Positions 19,089 through 52,084 of a stretch of 64,000 nt of DNA are shown here, piece after piece (positions within the stretch are counted from its first letter, which is position 1; each line of letters starts with the position of its first letter). Location: the IMG/VR virus record IMGVR_UViG_3300018875_000003, positions 32,001 through 96,000 of that record. One strand, given 5' to 3'. The position numbers were made by a program, and so were the translations under genes. A model generated the notes under the pieces. The model did not search any database, was not told the DNA's origin, and saw only the letters and a program-made list of their open reading frames with translations. This DNA comes from a virus.

Positions 19089-19262
19089 CTACTTTCCTTC
19101 GTTTTTCTCCATTGTGATCGCTTTGAGCAGCAAACGCCGACCCTCGCTCGCCCAATCGCCAGGCTTGATATTGCTGAAATGCTCATCGATCTCCGTATCC
19201 ACTTCGCGGATAATAACTTGGATTTTCGGAATCTTCGGCGCTTTGTGTTCTGCCATGTTCAT
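19089..19262 (-). CDS. parR: ParR-like ribbon-helix-helix adaptor (57 aa, not in ORF track)
   Basis: ATG overlaps parM TGA; MNMAEHKAPKIPKIQVIIREVDTEIDEHFSNIKPGDWASEGRRLLLKAITMEKNEGK has a strand-helix-helix pattern. Confidence 0.65.
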   Translation of the reverse strand: MNMAEHKAPKIPKIQVIIREVDTEIDEHFSNIKPGDWASEGRRLLLKAITMEKNEGK

Positions 19263-20506
19263 GATGCCTCGCTTTCAAATACGTTCTTAATAAAACGATC
19301 GTAGACTGCTTCGAAGTTCAGCGAACCATCCTCCTGCGGCTTGATCTGGCTGATAGCTGCACGGATATAGAAGCCGTACACGTTTGCCATTTGCGGATCA
19401 TCGACAGCAACGAAGGCTTGCACCTTGCGGGCAACAAACTCTTCACGCAGTGCGTCCTGGAAGATGTGGGCGCCGCCACCGGTCAGCAAGATAATCTTCA
19501 CGCGGTTTGCATGCTGACCCCACGATGTGATGACCTCGTGTGCAATGACTTCGGCAATCTCTTTAGCAGCCTGCTGCACTAGCGGAGCCATGTCGTGCTG
19601 ATCGCCATTGAAGTCGATCTTTATGCCGCGTACAGCATCGTCCAGGTCTGCGTCGGTTGGCGTGTAGGCGATGCCGAAATTTTCATCAAAGTATCGCGGC
19701 ATGCTCACTCTCAGGCGCTTATACAGTTCAGATGTTGCCACAGTGGAAGCGTAAGTACCCTGCTCGTCCATAAACACGCCTTCGGAGAACAGCGCATAGT
19801 CTGTCGTCAGGTGGCCGATGTCGATAACAGCCGTCATGGATCGATACAGTTCAGTTGTCAGGAGACCTTCTCTCGTAAACGCGAATTGCGAATAGGATAC
19901 GGTGCCTTCTGGCTGTCTGACAATTTCAGAGCCAATCACGTTGATGTTCTTGGTAATCGTCTTACCGAATCCAAGGTAGAATGTCACCGTGAATGTCTGA
20001 TTAATGTATTCTTCAAGTCTCTTCTTGATTCCCAGCTCGTAGTCATCGTTTGGCAGGCCGGTTGTCACGTACACATTGTAATCCCCATCCTCGTGCGGCA
20101 GGCACATGGCTAGGTTTGTTTCAAACAGGACACGGAAACTCTGATCGCTTGCCCGGTCGTGGTTGGTGGTACGGTTTGTCACCAGAAGCGCATTGCTCTT
20201 CATTGCCTGGGTGCCAACGTGGAAGATTCCATCGCTAGTCTTCACCATCAAACGATCCTCATCGATTGTTGTGTTTCTCAAAGAGTTTGCATATTTCTCG
20301 TTTGTTGTTTGCACAGTCGATGGCATTACGCCTGCTTGACCTGTGCTGGATAGACGCTTCGCTCCGCCGAATCCGATATCGAGACCAACGATCTCATAAC
20401 CGAATGCGTCAGCGAGTACTTGCAATACTGTCTGGCGCTGGCCTGTCTCCTCTTGACCTGTTTCAATAGCTTTTGCCTTTGCTGCTGCACCTGTTTTAAC
20501 CGCCAT
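19259..20506 (-). CDS. parM: ParM/StbA-family actin-like partition ATPase
   Basis: GLDIGFG..K, TGLP, QPEG, VIDIGHLTTD, LLTGGGA, PQMANVYG. Confidence 0.9.
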   Translation of the reverse strand: MAVKTGAAAKAKAIETGQEETGQRQTVLQVLADAFGYEIVGLDIGFGGAKRLSSTGQAGVMPSTVQTTNEKYANSLRNTTIDEDRLMVKTSDGIFHVGTQAMKSNALLVTNRTTNHDRASDQSFRVLFETNLAMCLPHEDGDYNVYVTTGLPNDDYELGIKKRLEEYINQTFTVTFYLGFGKTITKNINVIGSEIVRQPEGTVSYSQFAFTREGLLTTELYRSMTAVIDIGHLTTDYALFSEGVFMDEQGTYASTVATSELYKRLRVSMPRYFDENFGIAYTPTDADLDDAVRGIKIDFNGDQHDMAPLVQQAAKEIAEVIAHEVITSWGQHANRVKIILLTGGGAHIFQDALREEFVARKVQAFVAVDDPQMANVYGFYIRAAISQIKPQEDGSLNFEAVYDRFIKNVFESEAS

Positions 20507-20526
20507 ATTATATTTCCTCCTAATTT

Positions 20527-20599
20527 GACATGTTACAACATGTTATACCATGTTACGACATGTTCTGATGTGTTCTCTCATAATCGATCATAACATGTC
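20527..20599. repeat. parC-like centromere: 10-bp-period repeats with core CATGTT
   Basis: gacatgttac aacatgttat accatgttac gacatgttct gatgtgttct, plus a further copy inside the parM promoter. Confidence 0.7.
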
Positions 20600-20615
20600 C
20601 CATTAGAGGAAGCAA
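20587..20615 (-). promoter_or_regulatory. SigA-type promoter of parMR
   Basis: TTGCTT-17-TATGAT with extended TG on the minus strand. Confidence 0.65.
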
Positions 20616-20644
20616 GCTTTATTTGTAAGGTTTTTTTACGCACG

Positions 20645-20678
20645 AAAAAAGCAGCAGGTGTGCCGCCCGCTGCTTTTC
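20645..20678 (-). terminator. Intrinsic terminator
   Basis: GCAGCGGG/CCTGCTGC stem then T6 on the minus strand. Confidence 0.7.
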
Positions 20679-21095
20679 TAACAAGTGATGCTGTTGTGAG
20701 GTTGGAGATCTCAGGTGTCCTAGCTGAGTATATTTTATGCCAGTTGGCAATAAATATCAAGAACAAGTGTTCCTATTTTTGTGATTGTCTTTTTCACAGA
20801 AAAGGCTTCGAGAACGCGGCCAGCGTTATTGTGAACTTGGAGGAAACACAATATGCGTGAGGTGTGAGAAGGAACATACCTTTGAGAGGATATGATTTAG
20901 CTTTTTTCTCGAAGCCCTTTTCTCTGAAAAAGAATGGCGTATATGGTCACGTCCCGGATTACTTGTTTGAAGGAGGTGTCGTGGGCCATGCTAACCCACG
21001 ATGCAATCCAGGACGCGCATATACCAGTCAGCCAGTTTGAGGAGAGGCTGTCGTCATCTGCCCAGTCGTTCGAGTCTGTGGTATCGTTCGACTTG
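20645..21095 (-). ncRNA. Putative ~450-nt structured sRNA with anti-SD loops
   Basis: Promoter at 21101-21129, terminator at 20645-20678, long stems whose mismatches are G-U on the minus strand, no convincing ORF. Confidence 0.55.
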
Positions 21096-21100
21096 AGTTC

Positions 21101-21129
21101 ATTCTACACTAAAATGTAACGCGTTACAA
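21101..21129 (-). promoter_or_regulatory. SigA-type promoter overlapped by operator palindrome TGTAACGCGTTACA (21115-21128)
   Basis: TTGTAA-17-TAGAAT on the minus strand. Confidence 0.65.
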
Positions 21130-21136
21130 TACCAAA

Positions 21137-21322
21137 CTAGAATTTTCTTTTTCTCTTTTTACTTTTGTCTTCGTATCGCTGATCCTGGACGTATTTATCG
21201 TCTACAATGACCGCCTTGGCTGTCTGGAATACGTGAGGCGCTGTCATGGATACAATGACCAGCAGCATCGCTGCCAGAGCCCCTTTATTCCGGCGTGTAA
21301 TCCGGCGTTTGGTAAGTAGCAT
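21137..21322 (-). CDS. Small single-TM protein
   Basis: MLLTKRR..LAAMLLVIVSM; basic tail; GGAG RBS. Confidence 0.5.
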   Translation of the reverse strand: MLLTKRRITRRNKGALAAMLLVIVSMTAPHVFQTAKAVIVDDKYVQDQRYEDKSKKRKRKF

Positions 21323-23556: not shown

Positions 23557-23720
23557 TTTTTTATTACATGAATCTTCTGAACCTGGGCGTAGTCTCCTTC
23601 AGTGTCGATGATCGTCGCTTCGATCAGAGCTGCCGATGGATACGCTTGGCCTGCCGGTACGCTGTCGATTTTCTTCCCGCCTGTTTTATATACGTCAATG
23701 ATGAATGCTTCTGCCAACAT
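23553..23720 (-). CDS. Hypothetical 55-aa protein (not in ORF track)
   Basis: AAGGA RBS; stop overlaps the next ATG. Confidence 0.55.
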   Translation of the reverse strand: MLAEAFIIDVYKTGGKKIDSVPAGQAYPSAALIEATIIDTEGDYAQVQKIHVIKK

Positions 23721-23764
23721 GATTGATCAATCCTTTATTTTTTATTTACTTCCGTATTCTCAGA

Positions 23765-23793
23765 TTGTAACGCGTTACAAAGTAGTTGACAAC
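23765..23793 (-). promoter_or_regulatory. SigA-type promoter containing a perfect operator palindrome (23766-23779)
   Basis: TTGTCA-17-TACAAT on the minus strand. Confidence 0.65.
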
Positions 23794-23961
23794 AAGTAAT
23801 TTTCCTATAGGGGGCATTTTCTACAAAAAAATTTTTCGGAGGGTACCTAGTTGTTTATTGTTGGTGAGTGGTAGCGTTCGGCGCCCCACCCCCTTCAATA
23901 GACAACACACATTTGGGTTGGCAGTGATCCCATCAAACTGCACAAACGAAAGGAGTCTATC

Positions 23962-24504
23962 ATGACTACACAAGCATTCAGCAAGAAAGGTCTTAACATT
24001 CTTCAAGGAGCAAGCATCCAAGGCGCACGCTTACTGGGTCAAACAGTACGTGGCATGGATAAGGTAGCTGCTGTGGTTGCCCCTGTATTGGGTACGGCAT
24101 GGAGCGTTATTAAGAAGGTAGGCATCGCTGTATACGATATGGTACGTGATGACATCGTTCAGTTGGCAGGCTTTGTACGTGAGCACAAATGGCAGACAGG
24201 TGTAACAGTAGCCTCTGCTGTGGTAGGTGGCATGGCTACCTCCACTATGGTAGGGGCTTCTATACTGGCTGCTATCCTGGCTATGACTACCATTGTCACT
24301 GTACACTACCTGATTGCGAAGCGTAAGAAGCAAGCTATGGACTGGCGTACAACCATTGCAGCAGCGCTTCTTTCTGGAGCATGGGCGTTTACTATTCCAT
24401 TCGCTGTATTCACCCTGCTTGCAACGCTTATCTTTGGTGCATTCTTCGTATTCAAAGGTATGCTGCTTGTATTCGTACAAGTAGCTGCCCTGTTCGTGAT
24501 CTAA
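23962..24504 (+). CDS. Multi-TM membrane protein, first gene of the plus-strand arm
   Basis: 180 aa; AAGGAG RBS; several hydrophobic segments. Confidence 0.75.
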   Translation: MTTQAFSKKGLNILQGASIQGARLLGQTVRGMDKVAAVVAPVLGTAWSVIKKVGIAVYDMVRDDIVQLAGFVREHKWQTGVTVASAVVGGMATSTMVGASILAAILAMTTIVTVHYLIAKRKKQAMDWRTTIAAALLSGAWAFTIPFAVFTLLATLIFGAFFVFKGMLLVFVQVAALFVI

Positions 24505-25106: not shown

Positions 25107-28100
25107 ATGACAACTACTAACAACAACAAACAAGCTCAAATCAACAAGCAACTGGCTCAAGTTAATCGTCTGTTCAACCAAGCTGTAAAAGGCAACAAAG
25201 TGAAAGCTGAAATGTCCGAACTCAAGTCTGCTTCTGTAATCCTCGATGCGATCGCTACATTCCCAGGACTGGGCGTGAAAACGAAGAACTATGAAGCGAT
25301 CACAGCAGCTATGGCAGAAGGACACAGCCTGCGCAGCATCATGCTTAATCCGGAGCTGACCGGCGTAGCGAAGAACCAATACCGTTACTTCCGTGCATTC
25401 ATGGATGCTAAAGGTGACGACATCCCTGAGATGGTTATGGCTCCGACTCGTAAACGTGTACGTACTGTATCGGTCGATCTGCTGAAGCACTCCCGCAACG
25501 AAGCTGGTGAAGTGGTGCTCAACGCGGAGGTTAACTTCCAATCTCAGTCTCAGCTGGCTGATGCGTTTGGCTCCCTTGCTGCCGACGACAAGAGCGATCT
25601 GTACTTGGATATGGCTCACGTTGTTTACATCGACCTCAACATCGCTGATCAAGAGAATCAGGAATTGAAAGACTTGCAGGTCGAGGTTGTACGCAACGGA
25701 TTCTACTACAGTGTGGATGGCGTTACACACAAAGCCAACTTCTTCATTCAGACAGCATCCCAGGCTCGTCAGCTGCAAGGTATCTACATTGCCGAAGACT
25801 TCATGACGATCCCGCAAGCATTCAAGAAGCTGGGTCATGACTTCCTCGCTTACTGCAAACTGAGCAAAGATGGCATCTATACACTTGACATCACGAAGTA
25901 TCTGAAACGTCCAGGTCTGTCTGGTACAAGCTCGGTATCTTCGAAAGCAATCACATTCCCGAATGCTCGTATCAGCAAGCTGGCTAATATGACTACTGGT
26001 GAATACCTGGTTGAATCCGATCGTCACACGATGGCGGTTATCGAGGATCGCTTTGCAAAGATCACCAATGGCACATTCAAAGCATTCTACAACAACCGTG
26101 TGGTAACTGTGTCTGCTGTTGATGGTGTATTCACCGCTCAATGGAAAGATGGCCGTCTGACTAAACAAGAAGTGCTGCCTATGAACTACCTGAAGCTGGG
26201 TGTAGGCGATGGCTTGGTTCTGGCATCCGAGTCGATCTACTGGGCACTCAAAGCCGAGCATGGCAATGACTCTGACGCATGGCAAGTACGTATCACCCCA
26301 TTCGTTAAAGGTCTGATGGTATTCGTCCCTGGCCTGCGCAAGTATTATGATGCAGACATCGTTGCATTCAAATCCGCTGTGAAAGGTGACTTCCGCCTGA
26401 TCGCTGACGAAGAAGGACGCTTGGACTTTAACATCGAGCTGCGTATTGCTCGCTTTGCTAAACGTCCAGGTAAGAAAGCGGAGTATGTAGAGCTGCCGTA
26501 TCAGTTCGCTCACGTATCCAGCATCACTGCAGAGCAAATGATCAATGTAGCTGCTCCACGTCTGGAGGAAGCAAGAAACGTACTGTCCAACCCTGCACTG
26601 ATCCAGAAGTATACTGGCGTGGCTCACCTCGAAGACCTGAGCAAGCTGACGACTGCGGAAGCTGAGTTTATGCGTGATCGTTCCCTTGTATCCGTATTTG
26701 CTAACTTCATGCACTATGCCCCATTCACGTATGAGGATGCTTACATGCAAACACGCGCTCTGCAACTGATGGGACAGCAAGTAGACAAATGGGTTGCTGG
26801 TACAATCCCTGTAGAAGGCGAGTATCGCTTCATGGTTCAGGATCCGTATGCTCTGCTGCAAGCTGTGGCTGACGAAGATGGTGATATGATTGTTCCCGCT
26901 TCCGTTGGTCTGCGTCCGCATCAAACATTCATGACTGCACGCGATAACAAACACTTTGTGACTGGACCGGTTGCTTCCTTCCGTAACCCAGCGATCGCTA
27001 AAGGTGAAGGCCGCGTACTGAAAGGTGCTGCTCCGGAGAACTATGTAACCGCATCTGCGAAAGGCGCATTCAACTCGGTCTGCATCATGAGCTGCCACGA
27101 TCTGGACACGTTCGCTGAAGGCGGCGCGGATAACGATGGTGACGAAACATTCGTAACGCAAGTGCCTGAGATCGTAAACAGCATCATGGGCAAAGATGGC
27201 GAATCCAAGTTCCTGGCTATGCTTGACCTGCATGTAGGCAAAGATGGTGAGTGGGCTTCCGGTTGCCCGTTCCCTATGGAATCCGATGAGAAGCTGACAT
27301 TCGGTGCAGCATGCGTGGATCACGATGGACAATTCAAAGTGAAGTTCACTGCTGATCAATACGATGATGCTTTCATCCAAGCTGTGCATGAGCTGAGTAA
27401 AGAGTATGTCATCCGCACGCTGAACCCGAACAAGATCGGACAGCAAACAAACATCGCTACACGTCTGGCGGATGCTGTGCGTAAGGTTGGCTATATGTAT
27501 GCTGAGGGTGTAGACGAGTTCGGTCAAGCTGTCGATCGTACCGAAGCAGAGAAACAAGATCTGCTGCATGAGATTGTACGCATGGAAGAAATGATCGATC
27601 TGGTTCGTCTGACACAAGGATGGGAGATTGACCGTGCGAAGCATGGCGGTGCATACGAAGAAGCACTGGCTGCCGAGCTTAACTTCATCAACAACCCACC
27701 GAAGTATGCTGGCTTCCAGGAGAATCCGAAAGCGAAACGCGTATGGATCAAGCAAGCATGGTTGTCTCACCACAAAGGCACTGAAGGTGGAATCGATACA
27801 GGTTCTGTAATGAGCCGCGTACACAACCACATGAAAGCATTCGTACAGGAGAATGTAATCGACAAGTCTGAGGAAATCAAGAACGATGTCGAGAACAACA
27901 ACATCATCCATGTACTGAGAAGCGAATATGCTATCGATGCTAACAAGTATGAGGCTTTGGCTGCTGTGATCCGCTCGATCCGTGCATCCTACACTGCCGA
28001 CCTGATGAATGCCCGCAATAAGAATGCAGAGTTCAACAAGCTGGCTGAAATCAAATACAACGGCAACGACCACGCTATTCGTATGGCGAAAGCTAAGATC

Positions 28101-31741: not shown

Positions 31742-32047
31742 ATGACTAAACAATCTAAAGCATTGAATGCACTCTGCGTTTTGTATCCTCATGCGCGCCC
31801 TGCTGCAGGTGAAGGATACAATATGATCCGTGCTGAGCGTTATGACAACCCTGTTGACTTTCAGAATCTTGTTACCTGTCTTCTTGCTGCGTTCCCCTCT
31901 TCCCTATTCGATCATGCAGATTATGTGGAGGTTAGATTCTCCGCCGACACGATCACAGTGTACACTGGCCACTTCCTGGTTGAGTCTGACGTATATAACG
32001 TTCGATTCCTCTATGAAGCTTCGTACCAGACAGACACTGACTCATGA
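31742..32047 (+). CDS. Hypothetical protein
   Basis: GGAGG RBS; 101 aa. Confidence 0.65.
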   Translation: MTKQSKALNALCVLYPHARPAAGEGYNMIRAERYDNPVDFQNLVTCLLAAFPSSLFDHADYVEVRFSADTITVYTGHFLVESDVYNVRFLYEASYQTDTDS

Positions 32048-38576: not shown

Positions 38577-38643
38577 AGTCGGCTTGGCGACTATAAATAG
38601 GCCTTTGGCCAAGCGCGGGCTCCCGGGTCGTCGGGAGTATGGC
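38577..38643 (+). ncRNA. Pistol-like ribozyme
   Basis: P1 AGUCG/CGACU; loop GCUUGG pairs with CCAAGC (pseudoknot); AUAAAUAG linker; P2 GCC/GGC; GCG; P3 GCUCCCG/CGGGAGU. Confidence 0.78.
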
Positions 38644-38674
38644 AACACATACTATTCCAAACGAGGTGCTTACT

Positions 38675-41170: not shown

Positions 41171-41204
41171 AAAAATAAAACATACACTTGGAGGAATACA
41201 CACT

Positions 41205-51800: not shown

Positions 51801-51844
51801 TCATAAGTTTGAGGAGAAGTTATCTGTTTGAAGGAGGAAGCAAC

Positions 51845-52084
51845 ATGATGGAAGGGCAAGGAGATTTATTCAACGATCTTGTTCCACCGGCGAGAAATGA
51901 AGAGCCAGCAGCACATGCTCCGCTGGAAAGAGAAGACTTACTGCGTACTGCATTTGTACTCAGCAATGTGCTGCTTAATGTTTTGATCGAGAAAGGCATC
52001 ATTACTGAGGCCGAATCGAACGATCTTTTGGGCGCAGCGCTGAAGGAATACCAAAAGAAGGTGAAGCTGAATGAAAACTCTTAA
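51845..52084 (+). CDS. Hypothetical protein
   Basis: AAGGAGG RBS; LIEKGIITE.E. Confidence 0.65.
   Translation: MMEGQGDLFNDLVPPARNEEPAAHAPLEREDLLRTAFVLSNVLLNVLIEKGIITEAESNDLLGAALKEYQKKVKLNENS

Follow-up and report, generated by a model that had tools for sequence, protein, structure and literature searches.

A structured RNA gene with two predicted nested transcripts and candidate antisense targets in a Paenibacillus phage-plasmid

The region from 20645 to 21129 of the window (a stretch of 64,000 nucleotides, positions 32,001 to 96,000 of the IMG/VR record IMGVR_UViG_3300018875_000003) contains on its minus strand a promoter-to-terminator unit without a conserved open reading frame. Its folding energy, its mosaic conservation, base pairs changed on both sides and the absence of an annotated gene at the corresponding place in NZ_CP118109.1 mark this unit as a real, selected element. 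It belongs to a Paenibacillus phage-plasmid of roughly 210 kb, in which the RNA gene is located beside the ParM/partition genes. With moderate confidence, we read the unit as a structured regulatory RNA gene of the phage-plasmid, which would give rise to two nested transcripts and pair with the leaders of two genes, termed T1 and T2. The RNA probably controls a small number of phage genes through pairing with their leaders, among them, in related phages, the gene of a small membrane protein in the endolysin unit; in our reading, it would be a new base-pairing sRNA of phages. The features of the locus are compiled in Table 1.

Table 1. Predicted features of the RNA gene and of its candidate target within the window
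Feature	Position	Strand	Basis or remark
Promoter P1, TTGTAA-17-TAGAAT	21101..21129	-	9/12 consensus positions; predicted start near 21094
Perfect palindrome of 14 bp, TGTAACGCGTTACA	21115..21128	strandless	overlaps -35 region and spacer of P1
Antisense segment of the 5' domain, CUGGGCAGAUGAC...CCUCUCCUCAA	21037..21065	-	conserved core GGCAGAUGAC at 21053-21062
Hairpin H2 with loop L1 UCUCCUCAAACU (21034-21045)	21029..21050	-	L1 matches 51806-51817
Domain H3: long stem, inner hairpin, unpaired L2 ACACCUCCUUCAAACAAGU (20961-20979)	20936..21025	-	folding and relatives
Helix H4, arms 20908-20931 and 20789-20812	20789..20931	-	encloses hypervariable apical region 20813-20907 with CU-rich tracts
GAAC-N4-GTTC box, LexA/Cheo-type core	20761..20772	strandless	abuts -35 region of P2
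Internal promoter P2, TTGATA-17-TAAAAT	20732..20760	-	10/12 consensus positions, best of the region; predicted start near 20725
Nested short RNA, ~80 nt	20645..20725	-	shares 3' end of the long RNA
Intrinsic terminator, 13-bp stem and U6	20645..20677	-	common to both RNAs
Long non-coding RNA, ~450 nt	20645..21094	-	fold z, consensus structure, no Rfam family, no conserved ORF
Candidate target T2, leader of gene 51845 (79 aa)	51806..51837	+	complementarity, ranks, simulations

An initial annotation of this DNA had described a minus-strand unit bracketed by an operator-overlapped promoter and a terminator, and both elements were found where it had placed them. The unit has the composition of an intrinsically terminated sigma-A unit, since P1 and P2 (9/12 and 10/12, 17-bp spacers) and the terminator hairpin (20668-20649) are all conserved. 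In the minus sense the RNA folds with a minimum free energy of -152.1 kcal/mol, compared with -104.4 +/- 6.1 in 100 shuffles (z -7.82), while the plus sense gave a z of -4.64. P1, P2 and the terminator all lie on the minus strand and the stems hold G-U pairs; the three G-U pairs of the terminator stem would be C-A mismatches if read on the other strand. No family of Rfam 15 (4227 models) reached its gathering threshold at the RNA locus, the sole match in the window being Pistol at 38577-38644. With E values up to 10, three weak matches were obtained between 20400 and 21300, which scored 14.6-19.6 bits against cut-offs of 40-81.

The same annotation had recognized no convincing ORF in the unit, and in comparison with the relatives none proved to be conserved. 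A coding function of the region, for one or several small proteins, is highly improbable. Candidates do appear in the ORF listing, a plus-strand ORF of 43 aa behind AGGAGG (~20988-21119) and minus-strand ORFs of 27-30 aa, and according to the alignment both lineages keep the plus-strand ORF open from the same start to the same stop. However, indels (+6, +2, -4 and -4 nt) shift the frame of this 43-aa ORF, the only one preceded by a Shine-Dalgarno (SD) sequence, over conserved bases. Moreover, a 1-nt indel after the ATG breaks the 30-aa ORF, the relatives lack a start for the 27-aa ORF, and the plus strand possesses neither a promoter nor a terminator. A type I toxin inside the RNA was rejected, as a conserved hydrophobic ORF is absent.

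The plasmid collection contained one matching record and the phage collection no match to the locus. ParM-based locus searches returned one unrelated match of 24%, nothing, or again the contig G001, which was the only true relative detected by a DNA-pattern search of viral contigs. Three further candidates were rejected: L008 and L010 share only an 18-nt seed and L009 could not be aligned, and they were therefore taken as chance matches. Genome and metagenome contigs yielded no match to these patterns. The idea that G001 contains the RNA twice was also rejected, as 16 of the 17 extra matches are copies of the palindrome and one is the internal inverted repeat of H4. Contigs from sequencing runs revealed further relatives with ~90% identity. 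Among the runs containing the locus, none was listed as RNA; a contig of 206 nt from X16, the one run labelled as RNA-Seq, spans 21048-21252, but it is marked as probably DNA and is silent on expression.

Promoters, stems and terminator are kept in both retrievable relatives, which are ~73% identical to the window, and the corresponding 689-nt stretch of NZ_CP118109.1 carries no annotated gene. Identity is distributed in a mosaic manner: it amounts to 79-97% in the promoters, loops, H4 arms and terminator, to 37-38% in the apical region and to 31-34% in the spacer past the terminator. Among the two relatives, 8 of the 108 pairs of the consensus structure are changed on both sides, compared with 0-2 when the partners were slid, and 96.2% of the cells are paired (39-47% with slid partners). 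Covariation in related phages, proposed earlier as a check, was found. Both this test and that of target conservation rest on one comparison, because only two lineages were available. The long stems described in the initial annotation are present as well (H3, 21005-21025/20936-20960; H4, arms as in Table 1). All 23 pairs of H4 are paired throughout, three of them with two-sided changes, and its arms are 88% identical. In domain H3, three pairs of helices 3 and 4 show two-sided changes; identity is 54-56% in the stems and 79-84% in L2. By manual reading of the alignment, the closing pair of H2 is changed from C-G to U-A, while helix 2 of the automatic alignment showed no two-sided change.

Both hexamers of P1 are kept in two relatives, while adjacent bases vary (identity 84-86%). 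The palindrome overlapping this promoter occurs at 22 sites of the window with at most three mismatches, compared with 1.87 expected, and none of 100 shuffles reached 22. G001 contains 51 sites, mostly immediately upstream of genes, and in the relative the palindrome is altered symmetrically (TGTAATGCATTACA). Its distribution identifies the palindrome at P1 as a putative phage-wide operator or promoter motif. The hexamers of P2 are invariant and its spacer bases variable. In the adjoining box, the core is constant across four lineages with ACTT, ATAC, ATAT and AAAC as N4, the last being read from the X2 differences at 20765-20767, among the 40 of 113 differences listed. GAACN4GTTC is the LexA consensus of B. 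subtilis (PMC4234289). As in members of the Bacillales LexA regulon, a candidate operator (20761-20772) thus lies at a promoter. However, GAAC-N4-GTTC was not enriched, its three copies per genome equalling the chance expectation, and its presence alone therefore proves nothing. P2, the nested RNA and the phage-wide spread of the "operator" had not been noticed in the earlier annotation.

The putative short RNA comprises a 5' hairpin (20710-20728), the single-stranded sequence AUCUCCAACCUCAC (20696-20709) and the terminator. Its body is 85% and its terminator 97% identical to the relatives, followed by 29 nt with 31-34%. No convincing target of this most conserved part of the locus was found among the leaders; the only candidate, the SD region GGGGGAGGCGGGAGAC with a weak pairing of 4+5 bp, was rejected.

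CCUCC/CUCCU tracts in loops or linkers had been pointed out before, and such tracts are indeed enriched and mostly unpaired. CCTC/CTCC occurs 11 times, compared with 4.14 +/- 1.93 in 1000 dinucleotide shuffles, none of which reached 11, and not at all on the opposite strand. In G001, nine CU-rich tetramers were counted and 3.0 expected. The mean unpaired probability of the sites is 0.33-0.99 (0.39 overall), L2 having 0.99. L2 contains CACCUCCUU, which we take to be the anti-SD end of Bacillales 16S rRNA. These data would suit a general multi-seed repressor, whose CCUCC loops cover SD sequences in numerous mRNAs of the phage or host, among them those at 41186 and 60014, as do the retention of L2 in the relatives and the persistence of CU tracts within the otherwise unconserved apical region. 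Nevertheless, we regard such a general repressor as rather unlikely: any SD region yields matches of 10-12 nt, and the best partners of L2 in both genomes are genes with long SD sequences of the GAAGGAGGTG type.

Four complementarities to phage ribosome binding sites (RBSs) had been put forward in the initial annotation. All of them are letter-perfect, but their length alone is within chance: at least 10 nt are shared with another RBS by 77 of 129 RBS windows, at least 12 nt by 19 and at least 13 nt by 4. Genome-wide, 29 matches of at least 11 nt were found, compared with 18.2 +/- 4.9 in 200 shuffles, and one of at least 13 nt, compared with 1.0; overall, the number of matches is near chance. 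The matches at 41186 (11 nt) and 60014 (10 nt) are at chance level because 60% of the real RBSs have 10 nt or more in common with a second RBS; in addition, their seeds lie inside the apical region with its 37-38% conservation, and these two targets are not supported. Counting against the base-pairing reading preferred here, the complement of the seed was not enriched in leaders (0 here with 1.0 expected, 2 in G001 with 0.8 expected). Duplex folding of the full-length 451-nt RNA with leaders was uninformative, as huge loops were allowed. Against these controls, only the double site before gene 51845 remained unusual. Of the multi-seed translational repressor proposed earlier, we retained the discrete non-coding unit, the unpaired anti-SD-like tracts and the 51845 site, and gave less weight to a generic repression of SD sequences, for which the support is partial.

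Complementarity to L1, GGGCAGAUGAC and L2 resides in AGUUUGAGGAGA and GUUAUCUGUUU(GAAGGAGG) of the leader T2. Tested with the 5' domain of the RNA, the 51845 leader ranked second of 129 here and its orthologue second of 202 in G001. Their joint rank of 1.5e-4 is the best of 77 orthologue pairs. With generic anti-SD pseudo-seeds, a control that covered 60 of the 129 seeds here and 50 of the 202 in G001, the leader attained rank 2 or better in 3/60 and 1/50 trials, respectively. In simulations using six real RBSs as pseudo-seeds, a double match within one leader like that at 51806-51817 and 51825-51837 arose in 1/1000 (k=11) and 0/1000 (k=12) cases. As read from the duplex, the C-to-U changes in AUCUGUUU of the window retain G-U pairing with GGGCAGAU. 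Of the blocks, L1 and GGCAGAU persist in the relative; the match of L2 to the true SD sequence is lost there and only AGGAGG is left. In the window, the double site survived the controls. Gene 51845 is the second gene of a unit that continues with OB-fold, SSB and RecA genes. A protein identical to its 79-aa product is encoded on a contig of 213 kb.

The strongest partner predicted for the RNA does not match by an SD sequence but over a longer antisense stretch, and it is located outside the window and the record. In a 212-kb contig of run X2, all 29 letters of window 21037-21065 were found on the opposite strand, 81.9 kb from the copy of the locus; the match is one between the letters of the window and the X2 contig. 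NZ_CP118109.1 harbors a 27-nt copy (85% identity, 128140-128166) at the equivalent relative position, 81.6 kb from the locus and in a 54-nt gap before a 71-aa gene; the strand of the copy is such that the mRNA is complementary to the RNA. G001 carries the identical site. Its duplex of -43.6 kcal/mol ranks first of 202 leaders (mean -18.9, sd 5.4), and the minimum over 500 shuffled seeds was -35.3. In the P. urinalis lineage the duplex is imperfect, with a perfect core of 10 nt followed by mismatches and a 2-nt bulge. The T1 product has two transmembrane (TM) segments, and its gene is the third after that of an Amidase_3 endolysin in a unit that begins at a copy of the palindrome. T1 was seen only in relatives because the record of the window phage (59% complete) stops short of that region; for the proteins of the T1 region, 0/8 homologues were found in it. 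A search with a T1 20-mer gave nothing and one with the T1 protein only G001. The protein forms one database cluster with a weak match to phrog_11929 ("membrane protein", E 5e-4). No function of either target protein was obtained from Pfam, PHROGs, a search of 5.8 billion proteins or the Atlas, and both are orphans without a family. T1 is absent from the initial annotation.

The 29-bp inverted copies could also act as DNA, either as sites of a recombinase or DNA-binding protein or in replication or partition beside parMR. The region adjoins the ParM gene and parC-like repeats, it contains long inverted repeats, and a strand switch and the GC-skew minimum are 2-5 kb away. We nonetheless deem a DNA-level element quite improbable: the 29-mer is not palindromic and an inversion of 82 kb was not seen, as the window runs collinear with G001, NZ_CP118109.1 and X2. 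Furthermore, an RNA is favored by the G-U pairs and by the unequal z of the two strands, promoters and terminator bracket the unit, and the parM promoter and the repeats lie outside of it. Unlikely, though somewhat more probable, is a structured RNA without pairing targets, be it the folded 3' UTR plus terminator that closes the upstream operon or an RNA whose pyrimidine tracts bind or titrate a protein or the 30S subunit. It would fit the strong fold, the lack of a terminator between P1 and the ORF that ends at 21137, and the lack of a clear target for the short RNA, but not two conserved promoters inside the unit, the 29/29 inverted copy at a syntenic leader and the top joint rank of the 51845 leader.

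On the preferred reading of a base-pairing RNA, two transcripts of ~450 nt and ~80 nt would start at P1 and P2, respectively, and end at one common terminator. P1 would be controlled by a repressor binding its palindrome TGTAAYGCRTTACA, which marks many promoters of the phage, and P2 by LexA via the abutting box. The long RNA would pair in trans by its 5' domain, comprising the GGCAGAUGAC linker, the 5' strand of H2 and the CUCUCCUCAAAC loop, forming a duplex of ~29 bp with the leader of the 71-aa two-TM gene in the endolysin transcription unit and a two-block pairing with the leader of gene 51845. Ribosome loading would be blocked and/or the long duplex cleaved by RNase III, so that the target proteins are held back. 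The remaining CU-rich loops and the short RNA may have roles of their own.

In the IstR/tisB system, the RNA pairs at a standby site and RNase III cleaves the duplex. IstR-1 and IstR-2 of E. coli are described as nested RNAs with a common 3' end and two promoters, one of them LexA-controlled (PMC2826370). The locus resembles them in its predicted nested RNAs, in one promoter with a LexA-type box and in pairing with the leader of a small membrane protein gene well 5' of the start codon. Unlike in IstR/tisB, the complementary segment is confined to the long RNA, the LexA-type box lies at the promoter of the short RNA and the partner is ~82 kb away instead of adjacent; the sequences are unrelated. 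As in type I toxin-antitoxin systems, a small hydrophobic protein has an mRNA complementary to the RNA, in relatives only, but the genes neither adjoin nor overlap, the loci being 81.6-81.9 kb apart.

The c4 RNA is cut from the transcript of its own target and acts on an antirepressor gene; a repressor whose operators are spread across the genome (P1 C1) governs its promoter. In the phage-plasmids P1 and P7, loops of c4 pair around the ribosome-binding site and block translation (PMC12197685). Our locus is likewise a phage-plasmid RNA gene with a palindrome-marked promoter. In the window, two seeds face two sites in one leader (12 + 13 nt, 0-1/1000 simulations), whereas in the relative the L1 and GGCAGAU blocks are kept and L2 is not. 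Unlike c4, which is processed from the leader that it represses, the RNA forms a unit of its own, bounded by separate promoters and a terminator, has candidate targets 31 kb and ~82 kb away and no Rfam match. RNAIII of Staphylococcus aureus and RsaE/RoxS are C-rich-loop sRNAs of Bacillota, whose unpaired pyrimidine-rich tracts pair with SD regions. RNAIII is similar in being a long multi-hairpin RNA with unpaired CU-rich tracts, which are enriched here. In contrast to RNAIII and RsaE/RoxS, the motif is CCUCC or CUCC rather than UCCC or CCCC, and the best-supported partner pairs by an extended antisense stretch instead of a loop seed; an internal peptide gene and a quorum-sensing promoter as in RNAIII, and an Rfam match, are missing.

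To our knowledge, almost nothing is known about the lysis decision of phage-plasmids beyond P1 and N15, least of all in Gram-positive hosts. A more far-reaching reading, which we consider doubtful, sees in the RNA a hub that joins the palindrome-binding regulator of the phage (at P1) with the SOS repressor of the host (at P2) and gates lysis, via a holin-like protein of the endolysin unit, together with a replication/recombination unit, combining long trans-antisense pairing with loops mimicking the anti-SD of 16S rRNA. In the literature passages searched, including those of reviews, this combination is not described for phages. If it were true, the RNA would play the part of both an antiholin and a timer of lysis and lysogeny in a jumbo phage-plasmid. 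The locus also illustrates how little short matches to SD regions say about the targets of an sRNA, and how the informative partner may be located beyond the window read. Phage-plasmids choose between a quiet plasmid life and lysis, and for this choice the locus provides a candidate RNA regulator that is open to experiment, two targets and two inputs being predicted for it.

The minus-strand unit at 20645-21129, placed between two genes that are 630 nt apart, is very probably a real structured RNA gene. Its minus-sense RNA folded with -152.1 kcal/mol, compared to -104.4 ± 6.1 kcal/mol for 100 shuffles (z -7.82); the plus-sense fold gave a z of -4.64. Both long stems proposed in the initial annotation (20789-20812/20908-20931 and 20936-20960/21005-21025) were present in the minimum-energy fold. 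The CU-rich tracts it had placed in loops and linkers were recovered as well: the RNA contains 11 CCUC/CUCC tetramers versus 4.14 ± 1.93 expected (at least 11 in 0 of 1000 shuffles), with unpaired probabilities of 0.33-0.99 at these sites compared to 0.39 overall. Nine tetramers were counted in the IMG/VR relative G001 (3.01 expected, P 0.004); on the opposite strand they number zero or one. The region also lacks a convincing ORF, as had been stated. Indels of 1, 2, 4, 6 and 8 nt are dispersed across it in the alignment with two relatives, the conserved bases of a plus-strand 43-aa ORF, the only one with a good SD, fall in different frames between the two lineages, and minus-strand ORFs of 27 and 30 aa are not kept in the relatives. 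A search of the RNA region against Rfam returned no family.

The source virus record (116,980 bp, 59% complete), of which the window is a part, has only two retrievable relatives, the 214.8-kb circular Paenibacillus urinalis plasmid NZ_CP118109.1 and the 206-kb record G001. Both are collinear with it at a DNA identity of ~66-77%, and the equivalent gap of the annotated plasmid (689 nt) carries no annotated gene. Alignment of the window with these two revealed a mosaic of identities (see table). The consensus structure comprises 108 pairs, in which 96.2% of the cells are paired, versus 39-47% with the 3′ partners slid; two-sided pair changes numbered 8, whereas sliding the partners gave 0-2 and shuffling 3.0 ± 1.3. 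For three sequences from two lineages, this covariation support is modest but consistent. A 212-kb contig of sequencing run X2 matches this stretch at ~90% identity, differing by 95 letters and 20 gaps within 1,199 nt. Provisionally, among the 40 of its 113 differences that were listed (20336 to 20886), none falls into 20618-20717, which spans the short RNA and terminator.

Features of the RNA locus and its surroundings (window positions; identity refers to the two relatives)
Feature	Position	Strand	Description	Identity
P1, predicted promoter of the long RNA	21129-21101	minus	TTGTAA-17-TAGAAT, overlapped by perfect palindrome TGTAACGCGTTACA	84-86%
Antisense 29-mer, 5′ domain of the long RNA	21037-21065	minus		81-84%
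H3 domain			stems, inner hairpin, L2	54-56%
L2, unpaired tract of H3	20961-20979	minus		79-84%
H4 arms				88%
H4 apical region				37-38%
GAAC-N4-GTTC box	20761-20772		directly against P2 -35	
P2, predicted promoter of the short RNA	20760-20732	minus	TTGATA-17-TAAAAT, 10/12 positions matched, best of the region; missed initially	
Short-RNA body				85%
Terminator	ends unit at 20645	minus	13-bp stem and U6	97%
29 nt beyond terminator				31-34%
Partition-gene promoter	20615-20587	minus	TTGCTT-17-TATGAT, own promoter, conserved	
Actin-like (ParM-like) partition gene	19259-20506	minus	Pfam ALP_N, E 1e-21	
57-aa ORF after parM	19089-19262		candidate ParR	
~61-aa small ORF	21137-21322	minus	basic N-terminus, one hydrophobic segment; flanks gap, ends at 21137	
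Palindrome, example sites	12823, 23766, 39254, 50987, 51021, 59999			

The described bracketing of the unit by an operator-overlapped promoter (P1) and a terminator was confirmed. The hexamers of P2 are invariant and its spacer bases variable in the relatives and the X2 comparison; a nested RNA of ~80 nt sharing its 3′ end with the long RNA is predicted to start from it. The core of the adjacent GAAC-N4-GTTC box was kept in four lineages, with ACTT, ATAC, ATAT or AAAC as N4. In B. subtilis, the core of the LexA operator is GAACN4GTTC (PMC4234289). Since each genome contains only three copies of this core, as expected by chance, the case for a LexA-type box rests on position and conservation.

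The palindrome TGTAAYGCRTTACA, a phage-wide motif overlooked initially, was found at 22 sites in the window (4818-59999; 1.87 expected) and, with up to two mismatches, at 51 sites in G001, most of which are intergenic and precede a start codon by 30-80 nt. It is present at many intergenic promoters, often as TATAAT-N5-6-palindrome, and stands at the head of the unit with gene 51845 (50987, 51021) and, in G001, of the endolysin unit (200825). The set looks like operators of one hypothetical global phage regulator, comparable to the C1 operators scattered over the genome of phage P1. An exact copy (23766-23779) lies inside a switch of gene orientation at 23700-23965, with minus-strand genes to the left and plus-strand genes to the right; the cumulative GC skew has its minimum around it, between about 23000 and 26000. 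This region possibly serves as a hub for replication or regulation. A Pistol self-cleaving ribozyme matched the full-length model at 38577-38644 on the plus strand (49.1 bits, gathering cut-off 34.5).

Four to five AACATG-type repeats follow the promoter of the ParM-like gene (20507-20615, minus strand), probably a parC-like centromere and operator, and the 57-aa ORF is likely ParR. On the other side, the ~61-aa ORF is preceded by AGGAGG, overlaps the end of its upstream gene and is conserved, though unannotated, in NZ_CP118109.1. No terminator was found between it and P1; thus, the RNA region may also serve as 3′ UTR of that upstream operon.

All four complementarities to phage RBS regions reported initially are letter-exact. 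The accompanying reservation about chance matches among SD-like sequences was well founded: in this genome, 77 of 129 RBS windows match another RBS over at least 10 nt, 19 over at least 12 nt and 4 over at least 13 nt. Across the genome, matches with a minimum length of 11, 12 and 13 nt numbered 29, 9 and 1, compared to 18.2, 4.4 and 1.0 in mononucleotide shuffles. Match length by itself means little. Targets 41186 and 60014 were discarded, as their seeds sit in the unconserved H4 apical region and their lengths are commonplace among RBSs. Of the three candidate target genes suggested for the repressor, 51845 alone is upheld, and two of the four matches belong to it; the best partner is a site at another place.

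When six real RBSs were used as seeds in 1000 simulations, two separate matches within one leader, as in that of gene 51845 (79 aa), arose once at k=11 and never at k=12. Against the 5′ domain of the RNA, this leader ranked second of 129 (-36.3 kcal/mol) and its orthologue in G001 second of 202 (-35.1), the best joint rank among 77 orthologue pairs (1.5e-4; multiplied by 77, about 0.012). With generic anti-SD seeds, this leader came first or second in just 3/60 and 1/50 trials. The pairing consists of two blocks in both lineages, the H2 loop L1 (21034-21045) with GAGGAGA(G) and GGCAGAU with AUCUGCC in the relative or, via G-U pairs, with AUCUGUUU in the window. The claimed double targeting stood in part, the match of L2 to the true SD not being conserved in the relative.

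The strongest partner, T1, is for this phage inferred from relatives, because its record stops short of the region: tblastn with T1-region proteins gave matches for 0 of 8, and synteny runs off the record end. In the X2 contig, 21037-21065 occurs a second time with 29/29 letters; this copy is on the opposite strand, at a distance of 81.9 kb from the contig's RNA locus. NZ_CP118109.1 has a 27-nt copy at the equivalent position (opposite strand, 81.6 kb away) that shares 85% identity with the RNA of the window, and the G001 site is identical to it. The genes there are oriented such that their mRNA is complementary to the RNA. The site takes up the greater part of a 54-nt gap and ends up ~21-50 nt upstream of a start codon. 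The 71-aa protein encoded there shows two hydrophobic segments and a charged tail in its sequence, is named 'TMhelix containing protein' in one source and matches phrog_11929 'membrane protein' (E 5e-4). Its gene is the fourth of a unit headed by the palindrome and an Amidase_3 endolysin (Pfam E 2e-37; phrog_435 E 4e-33). The G001 duplex (-43.6 kcal/mol) was the strongest among 202 leaders, whose mean was -18.9 (sd 5.4); none of 500 shuffled seeds went beyond -35.3.

Other pairings were also seen. The best conserved partner of the short-RNA tract AUCUCCAACCUC is GGGGGAGGCGGGAGAC, the SD region belonging to a 346-aa gene that is itself conserved (25887-26927 of the window's own record, i.e., window -6113..-5073, minus strand; G001 95716-96756), ranking 7/129 and 2/202 with just 4+5 bp and an internal loop. 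A third leader in G001 (199960-199990, rank 4/202) carries, adjoining the SD, AGGAGGAGUCAUCUG, a 9-nt perfect complement of CAGAUGACU in the RNA; the window's record has no orthologue of it.

The RNA resembles RNAIII in its multi-loop pyrimidine display. Its predicted architecture is reminiscent of IstR-1/IstR-2 with tisB (PMC2826370), where the RNAs are nested, one promoter is under LexA and the partner encodes a small membrane protein; however, it was not assigned to this family because the partners are 82 kb apart and toxicity of the 71-aa protein is hypothetical. The regulatory logic is also like that of c4 of P1/P7 (PMC12197685), but c4 is cut out of its target's own transcript. No sequence or Rfam relation to IstR, c4 or RNAIII was found, and a literature search on phage-plasmid and prophage sRNAs of this type disclosed no description.

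The initial observation was confirmed in every structural point, and its interpretation was partly right. The conserved RNA gene, previously undescribed, belongs to a small group of related Paenibacillus phage-plasmids and most likely encodes a regulator that acts by base pairing. That the long RNA acts in trans as antisense regulator through all of the following steps has about an even chance. Its accessible 5′ linker and L1 would initiate pairing with the T1 and 51845 leaders. The long T1 duplex would block ribosome loading or be cleaved by RNase III, and pairing at 51845 would mask an SD-like tract that immediately precedes the true SD; the true SD itself could additionally be covered by L2 in this phage. 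Since the palindrome is common to P1 and the two target units, the RNA would be produced alongside its targets, setting a threshold or delay, and P2 would supply an SOS input.
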